A DNA stretch of 63,261 nt, the filler included, from Stramenopiles sp. TOSAG23-2 (Eukaryota): the NCBI GenBank assembly GCA_900128395.1. It is 8 parts of 8 records of this genome, joined end to end, with 100 filler letters (N's around TTAATTAATTAA, not from the genome) between each part and the next. Parts side by side here need not be neighbours in the genome. Positions count along the whole stretch, not along the records: positions 26,739 to 53,349 come from LT649430.1; 7 more parts are not named here. One strand, given 5' to 3'. This document shows, piece after piece, positions 26,639 to 53,926 of the stretch. How positions within the stretch are numbered: position 1 is the first letter of the stretch; each line of letters begins with the position of its first letter. The notes under the pieces are model-generated. The model saw only the letters and a list, made by a program, of their open reading frames with translations, made no database searches and was not told where the DNA came from. The position numbers were made by a program, and so were the translations under genes.

Positions 26639-26738
26639 NNNNNNNNNNNNNNNNNNNNNNNNNNNNNNNNNNNNNNNNNNNNTTAATTAATTAANNNNNN
26701 NNNNNNNNNNNNNNNNNNNNNNNNNNNNNNNNNNNNNN
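26639..26738. other. Artificial contig linker (N44-TTAATTAATTAA-N44)
   Basis: Identical linkers occur at 53350-53449, 55003-55102, 56655-56754, 58307-58406, 59959-60058 and 61611-61710. Contig sizes fall monotonically (26638, 26611, 1553, 1552 x4, 1551). Confidence 0.98.
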
Positions 26739-31875: not shown

Positions 31876-33734
31876 CATATCCATATCCAAACTGCCCAGC
31901 GGAGGCCACATCATTTGCGTGTTAGTGTTACAGTAGGGTTTATTTTGAAAAATTCAATCGTTTAAGAGTATCAATTTTAAGGAAATTGTATCAAAAATCA
32001 CAAATTTAAGTAGGTATCTATTTAAGGAATTGTTCTTACGTTGGTTTAGTTTCCGGTTTCTGGCCATTGATTTTTTAACTTGAATCTAAATTTATTATCG
32101 GATTATGTCAAAAAGAAGACGAAACGTTTACATTATAATTAAAATTACCGAAAAAAACACTTTAAATCAAAAAATTAAAATTTTATGGAAATAATGATTT
32201 TTTAATATCTCCAATTTATATTTAGAAAAATAGTAAATTAAAATGGCACTCGATATATATAGGAAGGTGACAGGATAGTTTAACAGGTGTACTATTTTGG
32301 ATTCGGGTGAAAAAATGAAAAATTCATGAAAAATTCACAACATTTAAGTACAAAACCATAGAGTACAAAACCGATAGGTAAAAATACAATTTCCTTGAAA
32401 AAATAAAAAGTTAAAAATCGCAAAAAATAAATAATTGATAGTTTAATTGATAGTTTAGCAAGAACATACCATCATATTTCAGTTCCTATATACCACCTCG
32501 AAAACTCGAAAATAGAACCAATAAGAAGTAACAATACTTTTCATAGTCTAACAAGTGAAAAAAAATGAAAAATTCACAACATTTTAGTACGAAACCATAG
32601 AGTACAAAATCACATTTTATTGATAGGTAAAAATTCAAATTCCATGAAAAAATAAAAAGTTAAAAATAGCAAAAAATAAATACCTTCACGGTGACGATTT
32701 TTGATGAAAACAAAAACCTTAAAAATTAGTATACTATTTATTGTACTTTTTGAAATTGAAAAATTTTGACCGTACTGAAAACGGTTCCTGGCCAAATCCG
32801 TGAATTTTTAAAAAAATTGTACTAATTAGTATATGAATTTTGTTTTTACTTATGTGTTGTTTTATTTCAGGGCATATATAGGAACAATAATTTCAATAAT
32901 GTGCCGTTATTTGAAAGTGAGATTTATCAAAAAATAACACAATAAATTATTTTGCATAAAATCTATGATTTTTGATAGGTAAAAACAATCATCCCTGTGC
33001 TATTTGTATGTTACAGCAAAATATTTGCTGGAATAAATTAAAATAAACCACAATACTTCCAAAATTATATACATGTATACTATATATATTTTTGAATACT
33101 ATAAATAAATTTTGAATTAATGTTTTCCAAATATCGGTAATCTCACAATACAATTTTCCCAACAATTTGATTGGAAAACAAAGCAAAACTATCCATGTAT
33201 TTTTACCAGATATTTTAACTGTCATGCTTACATTATTATAATGAATAACAATAGAAATTTAAACGAATGGGGGCTTTTTGCGTAATTACATTTTACGTTC
33301 CAAGGGGTTCAAAAAAAGGCTTAAAAGCTGTCTATACGTTTATACTTGATGATGTAAAAAGACTATTAAATTAGTTTTGAACTAGGACTTTTATCATCTC
33401 TACATTAAGGTAATAAATGAAAAGCAAGGTTCAAAAGTACAATTATAGGTTTATGTGGAAATAGTGTCTTTGTAAATATCCGGTTTATGAATGGATAGAA
33501 GCACCTTGGAGTGCACATTGCACATGGCCAAAACATTCAAATTTAGACATAGGAGTTTTGGTGTACTTCCACTGGAAAAGTAGTAGTCTTTTATGGTTTT
33601 CATTCATTTTCAATGCTATACTATGATACATGATACTATGTTGGATAAAATTAATATATTTTGAAGTTTATCCACACGTAACAGTTTCGAAAATATGTAT
33701 ATTATTCACTATCGGTATAAACTTGCCTTAATGA

Positions 33735-33848
33735 ATTCAGATAGGTAGTGAAAGTATACAAAATGGTCATGCTATTCTACCACAATTTTGCCCTAAATTG
33801 TGGTAGAATAGCACGACCATCTTATATACTTTCACTACCTATCTGAAT
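33735..33848. repeat. 114-bp inverted repeat (54-bp arms, 6-nt loop, 3 mismatches)
   Basis: Arms 33735-33788 and 33795-33848 are reverse complements; followed by a 23-bp tandem duplication at 33863-33908. Confidence 0.95.
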
Positions 33849-34462
33849 AACAGGGGATTTCCACGATGACTAGACTCTGGTTAAGACGATGACTAGAATC
33901 TGGTTAAGGGAAATAAATAATTTATATCACTTAACCATGTAATATGTAACAATATTACCTGTATGGTATGTCAGAAATCCGATAGTGAGGTACATGGTTT
34001 GTTAATGCTATTTCAAGCCTATTAATTTGACATACTTTACTATGTATCTTAATATTAGGATATTCTCATACTAAATTCATCATAAAAAATTGATATTTTG
34101 GGATTATAATAAATGTATTGCTTACCGTATGTATTGAAACTTGGCACTTTTTTGATAGAAAATCATCAAAGTTTGTCTCTATGAATGCAAATTTTAAGTA
34201 TACTAAAAATTTCGTTCAAGTACATCATTAATTTTAGAAATTACCCTTTTAGATTATGCGTTTTTATGAAACTAACCATGTTTTATTTTATATAAGTACT
34301 ATTTTCTAATAATCTTCCATGCTTTTGTAGCCCTATATAAAAAAGTATTTTGGAAAAAAAGATAAATTACAAAATTTTGTGTAAAATCGTTTTAAATAGG
34401 GACTGTATTAGTACAGTAATTGTATACTTAGTAAAACTAGAAAAAATTACCACAACATGTGC

Positions 34463-35507
34463 TGTATTACCTTGAAAAACAGGTACAAGAAAATGAAATG
34501 CAGTATTGCTTAAACTGTAACTTTGCATAGCGATTGCCTACAAGGCTACAAATTCAACCAAATGAAAGCTCTAAGTCATGGCTTTCATGTACTGCATGGT
34601 TGTAACTATGTAATATTAAATACGTACGACAAGATGCAATCAAACATTGAAATAATTTTATTTTGCGTTTGAATGATGAAAAGCGGATTGTATTACCTTG
34701 AAAAACAGGTACAAGAAAATGAAATGCAGTATTGCTTAAACTGTAACTTTGCATAGCGATTGCCTACAAGGCTACAAATTCAACCAAATGAAAGCTCTAA
34801 GTCATGGCTTTCATGTACTGCATGGTTGTAACTATGTAATATTAAATACGTACGACAAGATGCAATCAAACATTGAAATAATTTTATTTTGCGTTTGAAT
34901 GATGAAAAGCGGATTGTATTACCTTGAAAAACAGGTACAAGAAAATGAAATGCAGTATTGCTTAAACTGTAACTTTGCATAGCGATTGTGTACAAGGCTA
35001 AAAATTCGACCAAATGAAAGCTTTTAGTCATGGCTATCATGTGCTACATGGTTGTAACTATGTAAAATTAAATACTGTACGTCAAGATGCAATCAAATAT
35101 TGAAATAATTTTATATTGCCTTTGAATGATAAAAAGGGGATTGTATTACCATTAAAACGGGTAAAAGAAAATGAAATGGAATATTGCGTGAACAATAACT
35201 TTGCATAGCGATTGTCTATAAGGCTACAAATTCGACGAAATGCAAGCTCTAAGTCATGGCTTTCACGTACTTTATGGTTGTAAATAGGCCATATTAAATA
35301 CTGTACGTCAAGATACAATCAAACATTGAAATAATTGTATTTTGCGTTTGAATGATCAAAAGGGGATTGTATTACCTTGAAAAACGGGGAAAAGAAAATG
35401 AAATGCAATATTGCTTGAACTGTGACTTTGCGTAGCAATTGTGTATACGGCTACAAATTCGACGAAATGCAAGCAATTGTGTATAAGGCTACAAATTCGA
35501 CGAAATG
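34463..35507. repeat. 226-bp tandem satellite, about 4.5 copies
   Basis: Unit starts at 34463, 34689, 34915, 35142 and 35368; the first two copies look identical and later copies diverge. Confidence 0.95.
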
Positions 35508-35544
35508 GAAGGGAGGGACGTTGATCATATAAACAGGTTAAAGG

Positions 35545-35554
35545 AAAAAAAAAA
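35545..35554 (-). terminator. Putative RNA polymerase III terminator (T10) for the tRNA-Met gene
   Basis: A10 on the + strand is T10 on the - strand, about 25 nt downstream of the discriminator base. Confidence 0.65.
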
Positions 35555-35578
35555 TTTGAGATGTGCGGTTATGCACAT

Positions 35579-35858
35579 TGCCTCCGGCGGGGCTCGAACC
35601 CGCGCTTTATTTTGAGAAGGAAATTTAATGTTAATTTCTTGTCGTTTTCCGATTTTCCTTAAATTTTCACTTACACCTTTGGATTATGAGCTAATGATAT
35701 TTACTTGTTAATTGTTGTTCTTCCTACAAATTGTTCGTACTTGTTAACTTACACCAACGCTCTACCAACTGACTGTATATTTTAATTTAAGGGAGTTTTG
35801 TTAGAGAATAATTTTGGGTATCACATTTTTTTGTACAATTGACTTACGCCACGGAGAC
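35579..35858 (-). tRNA. Elongator tRNA-Met(CAT) interrupted by three spliceosomal-type (GT-AG) introns
   Basis: Exons 35858-35848, 35772-35753, 35690-35675 and 35604-35579 join to GTCTCCG TG GCTC AGTTGGTA GAGC G TTGGT CTCATAA TCCAA AGGTC GCGGG TTCGAGC CCCGC CGGAGGC A, a 73-nt full cloverleaf. All three introns start GTAAGT, contain YTAAC and end in AG. Confidence 0.92.
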
Positions 35859-36257
35859 AGGAGTGAAAACTCCTGTTTCTGATCGCTATTGTTCACTGTT
35901 ACTAAAATTTGTGAAATTTTACGTATATATAATAAATTATTAATTTCATAATTGTGTAATGATACTTACATCGTAATTTTTCATGTACAACGTAGTAGAA
36001 AGATAGCACTGCCACTGAAAATATTTTGAAGACTTATTTTTTTGAACAGATGTGCAGTTGTGGAATAGCAGGAGTTGCAATAATATATATACCAGTAGTA
36101 TATACACACAGACAACAAATATAAAAAAAATATTTACGTCTGTATGTGCCATAGACAATTACAATTGATTATATATGATACAAACAATACAAACGTTACT
36201 AACACACGCACACAACTTACGAATCAACGCGTATATATATATATAGTACAATAAACA

Positions 36258-36779
36258 ATGTCGACAACTCCATCAACATCGTCACCAACTTCAATTATTA
36301 CAATGTCTACCGCAAAATTAATAAACCAACGTCATAAAAACAACCGTCCGCATCATCATCAACATCATGCATATACTTGTCCAAAAAAACTTAATTGTCC
36401 ACAGCCTAAAAATAATAATATTACGGATATAAACACAAATACCACTTTTGATATTCTATCAAAATGGTATATCGATGGTGAATTAGAAATTAAACAAAAC
36501 TTACATGAACATGAAAAATCTGAATTAATTGAAGAGATTCGACAGTTGGAACAAAAGAATCATGATATAATAAAAAGTAAAAAATTAACGGAGAAAAAAT
36601 TAATTGAATATATACATTCCTTAGAAACAAAAGTAGGAACTTTAGAAAATGATAAAAGAAAGTTACAAACAACCATTCAAAATTTGGAAAAGAGTTTATT
36701 AGGAGAAAATGATTGGTACGAGGAAGAACATGCACTTGATAATGCTTTAATTACTTTTACAAATGGATTGAAAAAGTGA
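36258..36779 (+). CDS. Hypothetical coiled-coil protein
   Basis: 173-aa ORF with a low-complexity N-terminus and heptad-rich C-terminal half. Confidence 0.65.
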   Translation: MSTTPSTSSPTSIITMSTAKLINQRHKNNRPHHHQHHAYTCPKKLNCPQPKNNNITDINTNTTFDILSKWYIDGELEIKQNLHEHEKSELIEEIRQLEQKNHDIIKSKKLTEKKLIEYIHSLETKVGTLENDKRKLQTTIQNLEKSLLGENDWYEEEHALDNALITFTNGLKK

Positions 36780-37933
36780 AAATCCTGCCAAAATCCTGCA
36801 CCGTGTTGGTGGAAGAAAATCCTGCACCGTGTTTGTGGAACGTAGTGTTGCACCGTGTTTGTGGAACGTAGTGTTGCACCGTGTTTGTGGAACGTAGTGT
36901 TGCATATATGATGTATGTTAACTTATTTAAAAACCTGCACCGTGTTTGTGGAACGTATTGTATTCTGGGTATGCATATAATGTTAACTTATTTAAAAACC
37001 TGCACCGTGTTTGTGGAACGTATTGTATTCTGAGTATGCATATAATGTTAACTTATTTAAAAACCTGCACCGTGTTTGTAGAACGTAGTAGTATTCTAAG
37101 TATTCATGTATGTTAAAACTTATTCTTTTGAGAATATGTCATATAGTCTAGGAATTTCAAAGAACTTTTAAAAAATTACGAGTCATACTTGTAAAAAAAT
37201 ACAAACACGTTTGTATACGCGCGTATTTTATTGACATACATTTTACATTTTGACCAAGACTAGAAAATAAAACAAGGTTAAAATTATATATATATACACA
37301 TGTACAACGTTCGTAACACATAAAATATGCTTTTTCGTAAATTTTAAATTAATGTAAATATATGATATGACATATATATTGATAATATCATACACGTTCT
37401 AATAAATTATTAAATACACACTCGCTCTCAAATACACTACTCGTTCCCACAAACACGGCAATACAGGGTTTTCATCGTTCCACCAAACCTCTGGCTCACT
37501 AAATCGTTACAGGATTTTCACGTTCCACAAACACAGTGGTGCAGGATTTTCATAAGTTAACATACATTATATATGCAACACTACGTTCCACAAACACGGT
37601 GCAACACTACGTTCCACAAACACACGGTGCAGGATTTTCTTCCACAAACATATATGCAACACTACGTTCCACAAACACGGTGCAACACTACGTTCCACAA
37701 ACACGGTGCAGGATTTTCTTCCATTTTCACACGGTGCAGGATTTTCTTCCACAAACACGGTGCAGGATTTTCTTCCACAAACACGGTGCAGGATTTTTGT
37801 GTTGCAGGATTTTTGTGTTGCAGGATTTTTGCAGGATTTTCATCGTTCCACAAACTCTGGTATGTACAAAATACACACTTCGTTCCACCAACACGGTGCA
37901 GGATTTTCTTCCACCAACACGGTGCAGGATTTT
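36779..37933. repeat. Foldback-like structure: two inverted arrays of ~26-27-bp subrepeats (TGCACCGTGTTTGTGGAA core)
   Basis: Left array ~36779-37090 (+), right array ~37440-37933 (reverse complement); 36790-36833 is the exact reverse complement of 37890-37933 (44 bp). Confidence 0.9.
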
Positions 37934-39416
37934 ACACCGACATGGCTGAATTTAATAAATTTTTACCTTCCTCTGCTTTTGTTTCCAATTCTGCTGGTTT
38001 CATCATTGTTCCTCTTGCTTTTATTATAGGTGGACGTTTTGAATGATAACTAGGTGAATGTTGACGTGCTGGTGGTTTCATTGGTGGCATACCCATTGGT
38101 GTTTCAGGCGGTGCTACTTCACCATTATCCATAACTACTTGGCGTTTTGATGGACGTTTTGGTGGTGCTACACGTTTTTTTGGTGGTGGTTTAGCACCAG
38201 CACTATTACTACCAGATGGTTTAACACCACGTGGTTTCACAGGTGGTGGTTTCTTTGGTGCATTCCCACCAACAACAGCTTGTGCTATCGCTACGTCTTC
38301 TTTCTTCTCTTCATCGTTATTATTTGCAACAGCATTTGGATTTCTTGGTGGTGGTTTTGGATGTTTTGGTGCAGCATTTTTTTGATTACCACGTGGTGGT
38401 GGTTTTGCTAATTTTGCATTTGAGATCACCGTAACATTTGCATCTCCATTTACTTTATCAGTTTCTTTTGCTTTTGATGATCTCCAATCGACTTTTGCGG
38501 AATCTAATAGTAAACTCGCAGGTGTTTGATATCTTGCCATTCGAAATGGACCATTTGGACGTCTACTTTTTTGGATTACATTGGCATTTTTATGGGTATG
38601 GTATTTACGACGTAAACCACCAAAAAATCCCAAGGATCGCTTATTTCTTTGAACTACACTTGATCTAACTTGTTGATTATTATTATTAGTATTACTACCA
38701 TCCGCCATACCTTTATAATACTCATCCGTATCATTAATAAAACCTTTGATATCGGCCACGACATCGATAATTTCGCAATTTTTTTGCAACGATACACTGC
38801 GATTTCCCATTGATACTAAATCGTTCCTATGCATTTTCGTCATCTTTTGTAAATACGATTTCGATCGTTTTAAACGTGCCTCTTCAACTGTTTGTAAATT
38901 TTCTAATATTTCATCCATCGATTCTTTATGCCTGAATTGCACTTCGTTTAACCTTTTAATTTTTGTATATATAATCATTCGTACAAAATGTTAGTATTGT
39001 ATGTTTGTATGTATGTATGTATATATCGATATGTGTGGAAAGGTAAGGAAATCTATCTTTCTATAAGAATGCAGGTAAGAATGTCGGCCAACCTTGGGCA
39101 GGTTACTCGCGGCCAACCTTGGGCAGGTAGGTACTAAGAATGTAGGTAAGAATGTCGGCCAACCTTGGGCAGGTTATTCGCCGGCCAACCTTGGGCAGGT
39201 AGGTACTAACCTTTTAATTTTTGTGAAATGTTGCTGATCTAACATTTTCGTCTTTGCAACCGTTTTCTCCATTTTTGCTGCTAACTTTGCCTTTACTTCT
39301 GGTTTTAAATCGCCAGCACTTAATTTAGTCACAAGTTTTTCCGCAGCCTTTTAATTTTTGTAGATATAATCATTAGTGCAAAATGTTAGTATTGTATGTT
39401 TGTATATGTATGTATG

Positions 39417-39448
<32 letters not shown>

Positions 39449-40391
39449 GAAAGGTAAGGAAATCTATCTTTCGCATAGGCAATTAAAAATGCCTTGGGCA
39501 GGTAGGTATGTCGGCCAACCTTGGGCAGGTTATTCGGCAGGTAGGTATGTCGGCCAACCTTGGGCAGGTTATTCGGCAGGTAGGTATGTCGGCCAACCTT
39601 GGGCAGGTTATTCGGCAGGTAGGTATGTCGGCCAACCTTGGGCAGGTTATTCGGCAGGTAGGTATGTCGGCCAACCTTGGGCAGGTTATTCGGCAGGTAG
39701 GTATGTCGGCCAACCTTGGGCAGGTTATTCGGCAGGTAGGTATGTCGGCCAACCTTGGGCAGGTTATTCGGCAGGTAGGTATGTCGGCCAACCTTGGGCA
39801 GGTTATTCGGCAGGTTATTCGCCGGCCAACCTTGGGCAGGCAGGTATGTTGGCCAACCTTAGGCAGGTTACCTACAAGTTTTGCAGCATCAAATTTATTT
39901 TTTGATTTCAATGCCTCATCCATTGCATCACCAAGTTCTTTTTCCACAGCAGCTGCTTGCTCAGCAATTTTTCGTTTAATAATAGTTTGCGTATGTTTTA
40001 ATTGTATTAAATTATTACTCAATCCTTTCAACTCTTTTGTAGATGTTAATACTTCTTTACATTCTTCTAAAAGCGATTTTTTCATGGCATTCCATGCAAG
40101 CTCCAGGGTCGAACCTTTTTCACTTTCAGGTAGTATATGTCCTTTTGAAATTTCACCTAATCTATATGCATATGCTTCTTTTGCTTCTGCTAATGTATCA
40201 ATTGCAGATGCAATTACTTTTAACGAGAATTTTCCATCCCAACTACGTTCCATGCAATCAACATATCCATTTCCATAATTAATTGCTCGGTACCCTTCCT
40301 CTGCCGGGATCATTAAGCCAGCCGACATCCAATCCATATTATTTGCAGGTACAGTTGTTGCAGGTGTTGATTCTTTTTTTTTTTTCGACAT
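37932..40391 (-). CDS. F-BAR-like coiled-coil protein with Pro-rich C-terminus, 3 exons
   Basis: Exons 40391-39876, 39347-39211, 38952-37932. Introns 39875-39348 (GTAGGT..CTAAC..AAG) and 39210-38953 (GTTAGT..CTAAC..AAG) give a continuous frame (..DAAKL|AAEKL..TKIK|RLNEVQ..). EAYAYRL..GSTLELAW resembles an FCH/F-BAR signature. Confidence 0.8.
39502..39813. repeat. 39-bp minisatellite, 8 perfect copies, inside intron 1 of the F-BAR-like gene
   Basis: Unit GTAGGTATGTCGGCCAACCTTGGGCAGGTTATTCGGCAG; degenerate copies flank it and also occur in intron 2 (39070-39205). Confidence 0.97.
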
Positions 40392-53349: not shown

Positions 53350-53926
53350 NNNNNNNNNNNNNNNNNNNNNNNNNNNNNNNNNNNNNNNNNNNNTTAATTA
53401 ATTAANNNNNNNNNNNNNNNNNNNNNNNNNNNNNNNNNNNNNNNNNNNNTTAGAGTAGAGAAGAAAAGTGTTGTTGTGAGTGAGTGAGTCAGGATGGAGT
53501 GAGTGAGTAAGTCTTTGACACATTAAAGAGAAATTAAAATACTGGGCCAGTAATATTAACAGGGTCACAGGGTCTTTCCGGGAGATGGGGGTTTTATGTT
53601 TTCTTTCGACATCTCCTTCAAAAAATTTTTTAGCATCTTAGCTTTTTTAGAGAGTTTTAGAGTTTTTGACACACATTTTTATAAAATATTTCGTAATATA
53701 ATTAAAATAATTACACTGGAGGTACGCGTACGTAATTGTTTCTCTGTTTTTAGGAAAAAAATCAACACACCCCGACAAAATTAAATATCTCTACTCCAGC
53801 ATTTCCCCCACATATTACGAAGTTTGTAACATTTTTTTTAAACTCTTTATTTCTGCTTTTAATGCATCAATTTCCTTTACCAAACGAGCATTATTATCAT
53901 CTTTTTCTTGTTCTTTAATGCCCCCT

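Follow-up and report, generated by a model that had tools for sequence, protein, structure and literature searches.

In a 63,261-nt stretch of DNA from Stramenopiles sp. TOSAG23-2 (GenBank assembly GCA_900128395.1), which was analysed as a whole and is called the window here, we have found what is very probably a real nuclear tRNA gene interrupted by spliceosomal-type introns. The gene, for elongator tRNA-Met(CAT), occupies 35858-35579 on the minus strand. Three introns of 75, 62 and 70 nt separate its four exons and stretch it to a total span of 280 bp, as an earlier note on this DNA had pointed out. The gene is hypothesized to be transcribed by RNA polymerase III (hereafter Pol III) and processed by the spliceosome, with avoidance of oligo-T shaping its introns, a combination to which we give an even chance of being correct.

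The split tRNA-Met gene and its introns

When the exons were joined by their coordinates, ARAGORN returned a 73-nt tRNA-Met(CAT) with a complete cloverleaf. The stems of the spliced molecule measure 7 bp (acceptor, with one G-U pair), 4 bp (D), 5 bp (anticodon, with a U-U at 31-39) and 5 bp (T), and its discriminator base is A. From G1-C72 and the T54-containing T loop we take it to be an elongator rather than an initiator, by the general identity rules. The unspliced gene was not recognized: ARAGORN reported no gene in the window, Rfam gave no match for it at the gathering score, and the seven weak Rfam matches obtained at E<=5 over 33000-36600 included no tRNA. Standard tRNA finders miss such genes, and protist tRNA sets may therefore be undercounted. 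A search by T-arm geometry, for a T-arm-like hairpin with a TTCRANN loop, had a single match in the whole 63-kb window, which was exon 4 of the tRNA-Met gene; no other whole or split tRNA was found by it.

All parts of the gene lie on the minus strand. Exon 1 (35858-35848, 11 nt) provides the 5' strand of the acceptor stem together with TGGC, one half of the A box, at 35851-35848. Intron 1 (35847-35773, 75 nt) falls between nucleotides 11 and 12 of the 73-mer, within the D stem and the A box; it starts with GTAAGT, has CTAAC 27 nt from its 3' end and ends in CAG. Exon 2 (35772-35753, 20 nt) opens with the 3' part of the A box, TCAGTTGG, at 35772-35765 and goes on to the D loop, the 3' strand of the D stem and the 5' strand of the anticodon stem. 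It is followed by intron 2 (35752-35691, 62 nt), inserted between nucleotides 31 and 32 at the border of the anticodon stem and loop, with a GTAAGT start, TTAAC 16 nt from the 3' end and a TAG end. The anticodon loop with CAT, the 3' strand of the anticodon stem and the start of the variable loop are found in exon 3 (35690-35675, 16 nt). Intron 3 (35674-35605, 70 nt), between nucleotides 47 and 48 at the border of the variable loop and the T stem, likewise begins with GTAAGT and has TTAAC 25 nt before its end, which is AAG. Exon 4 (35604-35579, 26 nt) contains the T arm, the 3' half of the acceptor stem, the discriminator A and a match to the B box, GGTTCGAGCCC, at 35600-35590.

The donor GTAAGT, of which there are 31 copies on the two strands of the window, thus occurs in three of three tRNA introns, and the acceptor conforms to NAG in each. 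A YTAAC motif stands 16-27 nt before the 3' end in all three, an arrangement with P = 0.004 in 20,000 shuffles of the intron interiors. These signals were compared with those of four mRNA introns from the window (980 nt together), of which two, paralogous and repeat-rich, are RNA-verified and two are frame-restoring. The verified introns belong to a neighbouring minus-strand gene, in which RNA contigs of two studies omit 38949-39206 and 39347-39874 (joints 38948>39207 and 39346>39875). With the joints placed on GT..AG, they are 39210-38953 (258 nt, GTTAGT...AAG) and 39875-39348 (528 nt, GTAGGT...AAG). Removal of the other two, 15621-15543 (79 nt) and 15290-15176 (115 nt), restores a single 545-codon frame in the gene 16226-14398. 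Further mRNA-intron candidates, from a relaxed-donor in-silico screen, were dropped, being mostly antisense false positives.

CTAAC is found 31-37 nt from the end of all four mRNA introns. The AAG acceptor of tRNA intron 3 recurs in both RNA-verified introns, and a branch-like octamer, TCTCTAAC, is common to tRNA intron 1 and the 79-nt mRNA intron. Since the tRNA introns carry the signals of mRNA introns, they appear to use the organism's own spliceosomal signals. Judged by these sequence features, their assignment to the spliceosomal class (U2-type GT-AG) within a genuine tRNA gene is well supported.

Transcription of the gene

We infer the expression, splicing, polymerase and promoter mode of the gene. 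The earlier note had proposed a Pol III transcript handled by the spliceosome. Its spliceosomal part stands, with signals that match those of mRNA introns and no bulge-helix-bulge (BHB) motif, whereas Pol III and the avoidance of terminators are only suggested, plausibly if weakly, by the sequence. To our knowledge, every nuclear tRNA gene investigated to date is transcribed by Pol III. In the proposed mechanism, Pol III would start a few bases upstream of +1 and read through the 280-bp unit, which would be possible because the sense strand is without oligo-T, and it would terminate within a T10 tract 24 nt downstream. The three introns would be excised by the spliceosome, for which the perfect GTAAGT would serve as donor and YTAAC as branch site, as in intron-containing fungal U6 genes. 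Folding of the cloverleaf, followed by end-processing by RNase P and RNase Z, would take place only after the introns had been removed. With the A box cut by intron 1 and its halves 165-247 bp away from the B box, initiation would depend either on the B box and a contact made by TFIIIC over a long range, as in yeast SNR6, or on upstream elements.

The T10 tract (35554-35545, +305 to +314), which the earlier note had also seen after the gene, resembles a Pol III terminator and is the best single pointer to Pol III that the sequence suggests. It follows a predicted 3' trailer of 24 nt (35555-35578, minus strand) that contains a 6-bp hairpin, and it lies outside the adjoining 226-bp repeat unit. 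T10+ tracts are rare in the window (0.00013 per nt per strand); at whole-window densities, the probability of one within 40 nt is 0.005, and that of a T8+ tract is 0.017. The T4-free sense interval around the gene measures 311 nt (35865-35555, -7 to +304) and is closed by T10. Of the 54 T4-free intervals in the window that reach 300 nt, only two are closed by a T8+ run, and one of these belongs to the tRNA-Met gene.

The three introns, 207 nt in total, consist of A100, T53, G26 and C28 (74% A+T). As had been noticed before, their sense strand is free of T4+ runs, the longest being T3, and is rich in A runs, with eight of A4 or longer: intron 1 has one of 7 nt and three of 4 nt, intron 3 has four of 4 nt, and intron 2 has none. 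Intron 3, at 50% A and 24% T, has no T4+ run. Non-coding DNA of the window has 0.0153 T4+ runs per nt per strand, from which 3.1 would be expected in 207 nt. The probability of finding none was 0.09 in 20,000 random 207-nt non-coding samples, or 0.07 when these were A+T-matched, which is only mildly unusual. The probability of no T4+ run together with at least eight A4+ runs was 0.003 against non-coding background samples, and the A/(A+T) of 0.654 had P = 0.013 against A+T-matched ones. The skew of A over T is a stronger anomaly than the absence of T runs. It is also seen against the mRNA introns, in a comparison whose P values are nominal and whose sample is very small: T4+ and A4+ runs number 0:8 in the tRNA introns vs 5:5 in the mRNA introns (Fisher one-sided P = 0.029), and A:T is 100:53 vs 305:257 (chi-square P = 0.018).

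A number of observations count against Pol III transcription or against the selective avoidance of oligo-T. Composition-keeping shuffles of the introns lack T4+ runs in 59% of cases (P 0.59). Their T-poor composition accounts for the missing T runs; it is the skew, not the runs, that requires explanation. The mRNA introns, the control that the earlier note had asked for and too small a set to be decisive, have five T4+ runs in 980 nt and predict 1.06 per 207 nt and none with a probability (P0) of 0.35. If the terminator threshold were T5 or T6, P0 at window density would be 0.35 or 0.65. T4-free intervals of at least 300 nt are no rarity, making up 54 of 1566 on both strands of the window. The nearest upstream T4+ run, a T4 at -11 to -8 (35869-35866), falls in the putative leader, so that either the leader is at most 7 nt long or this organism does not use T4 as a terminator; the run sits in the loop of a 7-bp hairpin (35857-35876, minus strand) that overlaps the 5' end of the tRNA. 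GTAAGT is clustered upstream of the gene as well, on the same strand (35969, 36220 and 36504). The split tRNA gene is also a single one, with no homologue in pattern scans and no second tRNA in the window. Finally, spliceosomal introns are usually described as a feature of RNA polymerase II (Pol II) transcripts, as in a recent paper (PMC12530127).

The promoter adds to these difficulties. The earlier note had the A box cut by intron 1 and the B box intact in exon 4, and both statements hold. The A box is divided into TGGC and TCAGTTGG by the 75 bp of the intron, its halves being assigned by the A-box consensus. The 3' half lies 165 bp and the 5' half 247 bp from the B box, and the canonical internal promoter is not intact. 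The two boxes of yeast tRNA genes are 31-93 bp apart and an A-box mutation leaves no transcription in vitro (PMC11724288). The A and B blocks of yeast SNR6 are about 200 bp apart, yet the gene is transcribed in vivo, as stated in a review of U6 genes (PMC5855946). The B box of the tRNA-Met gene, GGTTCGAGCCC at +259 to +269, does not discriminate between polymerases because the T loop requires the B-box sequence anyway. A TATA-like stretch is absent at -30; the nearest, at about -74 to -64 (35922-35932, minus strand), is of a kind common in this A+T-rich spacer. With a promoter so split and widely spaced, Pol III would need a non-canonical placing of TFIIIB upstream of exon 1. By comparison with SNR6 and the fungal U6 genes, Pol III transcription is mechanistically possible despite the broken type-2 promoter.

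Contigs were available from four runs. Three of these (X15, X17 and X19) come from metatranscriptomes of the poly(A), oligo-dT or cDNA kind, and the fourth, X9, is labelled 'DNA?'. Among the contig pieces and joints listed, none falls on 35545-35858. This might be held against the gene being transcribed; because the runs are contigs, mostly from poly(A) libraries, the silence is uninformative and we take it as no evidence either way. Mean depths in the bin 35410-36076 were 0, 0, 1.21 and 1.85 in the four runs, and neighbouring genes were covered in all four. X9 carries the 528-nt intron in spliced form (39346>39875) and has contigs on genes only, which points to a transcript-like library or processed copies. 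Homologues of the split gene were sought by pattern scans. The pattern of exon 2 with its splice borders had no match among metagenome loci. The exon-4 pattern matched eight metagenome loci, none a split tRNA-Met and all other tRNAs (bacterial ones, a cluster of 11 tRNAs and an unsplit tRNA-Arg, the last two being L004 and L007). Two viral scans gave no match and two phage tRNAs, respectively, with no split tRNA-Met, and a scan of prokaryote genomes gave no match.

The alternative that survives best, which we nevertheless consider rather unlikely, is that the tRNA lies inside a short spliced non-coding Pol II transcript from the divergent spacer and is released by RNase P and RNase Z. The introns would then be removed co-transcriptionally, and the T10 tract and T-poor introns would be coincidental or otherwise caused. 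tRNA-like structures are released from Pol II transcripts, as in the case of the mascRNA of MALAT1. The alternative would agree with the normal coupling of splicing to Pol II (PMC12530127) and with the disruption of the internal Pol III promoter in the DNA (PMC11724288). The neighbour at 36258-36779 on the plus strand is a real, divergent protein gene, which makes a bidirectional Pol II promoter plausible. Of the 21 minus-strand GTAAGT in the window, six fall within 35674-36504. Two of the upstream copies, at 36220 and 36504, are on the antisense strand within the transcribed region of the neighbour, which lessens their weight. An intron-like segment upstream of the gene (35969-35902, minus strand, 68 nt, GTAAGT...TAG), a candidate from sequence, is of the size class of the tRNA introns; it has one T4 and an alternative acceptor 6 nt further, and it is without YTAAC at the usual place. 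A Pol II host transcript would leave unexplained a T10 tract 24 nt past the gene (P about 0.005), and it does not account for tRNA introns that are T-poorer than mRNA introns (P 0.02-0.03). We know of no natural nuclear tRNA that depends on Pol II.

The gene could also be a dead or dying copy, a redundant tRNA-Met with intron-like insertions that is no longer expressed or is left unspliced, and whose T10 tract and lack of T runs are leftovers or chance. We regard this as quite improbable. The lack of listed RNA contig pieces and joints on the gene would suit such a copy, as would the split A box, the single locus with no split tRNA-Met homologue in the pattern scans, and the position in repeat-rich spacer beside a 226-bp satellite. 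Yet the cloverleaf is flawless once the three segments are removed, with no other lesion. Three independent insertions, each with a perfect donor, a placed branch motif and an acceptor at the exon borders, would not be expected without selection for splicing, and the branch motif alone has a shuffle P of 0.004. Nor are the introns copies of each other or of any sequence in the window, the best non-self matches in the 63 kb searched being 11-16 nt; one recent burst of a single element is therefore unlikely.

Least credible by far are BHB-type introns at ectopic sites, removed by the tRNA splicing endonuclease (TSEN) and a ligase as in Cyanidioschyzon merolae: a motif of two 3-nt bulges and a 4-bp helix, its general geometry, failed in three of three introns (0, 3 and 1 pairs in the central helix and 0-1 pairs in the flanking helices), all three have full spliceosomal signals, their 62-75 nt have borders that are unstructured in the minimum-free-energy fold, and they follow nucleotides 11, 31 and 47 rather than the canonical eukaryotic site at 37/38.

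Organism and genomic setting

The isoleucyl-tRNA synthetase encoded in the window has 97% identity to marine metagenome proteins, about 70% to named stramenopiles, and 84% to a cluster in which a protein from EukProt bears the label Stramenopile-MAST_4. The organism is treated here as a probable MAST-4-like marine heterotrophic flagellate. The window is composed of contigs joined by N44-TTAATTAATTAA-N44 spacers (26639-26738, 53350-53449 and five more), the last pieces being about 1552 nt each, so that adjacency in the window does not imply genomic linkage. The contig that bears the tRNA gene is 26739-53349.

The window is gene-dense and intron-poor, with four definable mRNA introns in roughly 25 genes; three introns within 73 nt are remarkable for this reason. 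The two RNA-verified introns (38953-39210 and 39348-39875, minus strand) are paralogous and share an 87-nt 3' end at 92% identity. Both are built of 29-38-nt GC-rich tandem units, eight copies in the longer one, and they form an introner-like or repeat-expanded pair within an otherwise intron-poor genome.

Downstream of the tRNA gene, a tandem array of the 226-bp unit (34398-35511, 4-5 copies of 62-100% identity) starts about 35 bp past the T10 tract. Upstream, a 355-bp spacer separates the tRNA gene from the divergent gene 36258-36779 (+), on which RNA contigs are found from 36214. Its 173-aa product is a coiled-coil-like protein without a Pfam family. Among 78 candidates from marine assemblies, 24 proteins matched it at E<=0.001, with identities of 100% to about 40%, and it appears to represent a lineage-restricted orphan family. 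Between this gene and the next, 26-nt and 65-nt repeat arrays are found at 36790-37110 and 37550-37935; they are inverted, with arms of up to 77 nt that are 96-100% complementary.

Two further elements lie on the other side of the satellite array. The first, about 75 nt at 33525-33600, has a contig depth that far exceeds that of the flanking DNA and reaches about 450 in X9, and it has loose contig ends on both sides in three runs. It looks conserved or repeated in other contexts and has no Rfam match. The second, at 33735-33848, is a near-perfect hairpin with 54-nt arms of 94% complementarity and a 6-nt loop; in Rfam it resembles only a microRNA precursor model, and that weakly, at 29 bits where the gathering score is 68. 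Among the metagenome loci, the 2919-nt contig L004 carries its eleven tRNA genes in 2.1 kb on one strand. A canonical intron interrupts the anticodon loop of one of these, and the gene inspected is followed by oligo-T; the cluster is unrelated to the tRNA-Met finding.

Significance and comparison with known systems

For MAST-4-like stramenopiles in general it is tentatively proposed, with somewhat less confidence than for the single gene, that the spliceosome would be obligatory for tRNA maturation. Pol III would transcribe the multi-intron tRNA genes, using a promoter that can function although its A box is split, and their introns would be held free of oligo-T because T runs would terminate transcription. 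If the reading of the tRNA-Met gene is true, it would be the first natural tRNA to require the spliceosome and a clean case of Pol II-independent splicing outside U6. A tRNA that is obtainable only after three spliceosomal events would cross the textbook boundary between intron classes; a 2025 paper treats spliceosomal (Pol II) and tRNA-endonuclease introns as unrelated classes (PMC12530127). If Pol III makes the precursor, efficient splicing of multiple introns would not be bound to the Pol II tail, beyond the case of U6. The gene would then reveal to what extent the elements of a type-2 Pol III promoter can be moved apart, and oligo-T avoidance would be a simple signature by which to tell the polymerase that transcribes an intron. 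The placing of three introns in 73 nt by an intron-poor genome also raises the question of intron gain in abundant non-coding RNAs.

A full-text literature search found neither spliceosomal introns in natural tRNA genes nor tRNA introns in MAST-4; of two papers covered by it, PMC3998028 and PMC5778133, this holds for the passages on introns or tRNA, and their supplementary tables might list tRNA genes. In its section 14, a 2018 review of U6 names the U6, U1, U2 and U5 snRNA genes and rDNA as intron-bearing non-coding hosts, with no tRNA among them (PMC5855946).

A close analogy is with the fungal U6 genes, and the comparison drawn by the earlier note is apt as such. The U6 of Schizosaccharomyces pombe is a Pol III transcript from which an intron is removed by the spliceosome, and fungal U6 genes have up to four introns (PMC5855946). 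Like the tRNA-Met gene, they are Pol III-class genes with one to several introns that have canonical signals and are otherwise unconserved. They differ in that U6 is itself a component of the spliceosome and a tRNA is not, and in that the tRNA-Met case is known here from sequence alone. Since the host RNA is a tRNA, the account of intron gain by reverse splicing at the active site is not directly transferable. Frendewey reportedly described in 1990 a Schizosaccharomyces U6 intron with a match to the B box. The B-box match would thus be intronic in that gene; in the tRNA-Met gene the B box is exonic and it is the A box that is split.

Spliceosomal introns also occur in the U1, U2 and U5 snRNAs of Rhodotorula hasegawae and in ascomycete rDNA (PMC5855946). 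These are, like tRNA-Met, non-protein hosts and include a non-Pol II class (rDNA); unlike it, none is a tRNA in the text consulted. For the promoter, the likeness is with SNR6, where TFIIIC-dependent transcription by Pol III works in vivo across about 200 bp between the two blocks (PMC5855946), the spacing in the tRNA-Met gene being 165-247 bp. In SNR6 the A block is unbroken and the TATA box stands at its usual distance, whereas the tRNA-Met gene has its A box cut and no TATA-like stretch at -30.

Among tRNA genes, the nuclear ones of C. merolae, also an intron-poor genome, have up to three non-canonical introns in the regions of the D arm, the anticodon arm and the T arm, according to three sources (PMC3728597, PMC9602550 and PMC3978253). 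Those introns are of the BHB type and are removed by the tRNA splicing endonuclease, whereas the introns of tRNA-Met have the borders GTAAGT...YTAAC...NAG and failed the BHB test in all three cases. An experimental counterpart is that of Koehrer, Vogel and Domdey (EMBO J, 1990), in which an engineered yeast Pol III pre-tRNA with an actin pre-mRNA intron was reportedly spliced by the pre-mRNA machinery. That construct, as we understand it, was artificial and had one intron; the tRNA-Met gene described here is a natural gene with three.

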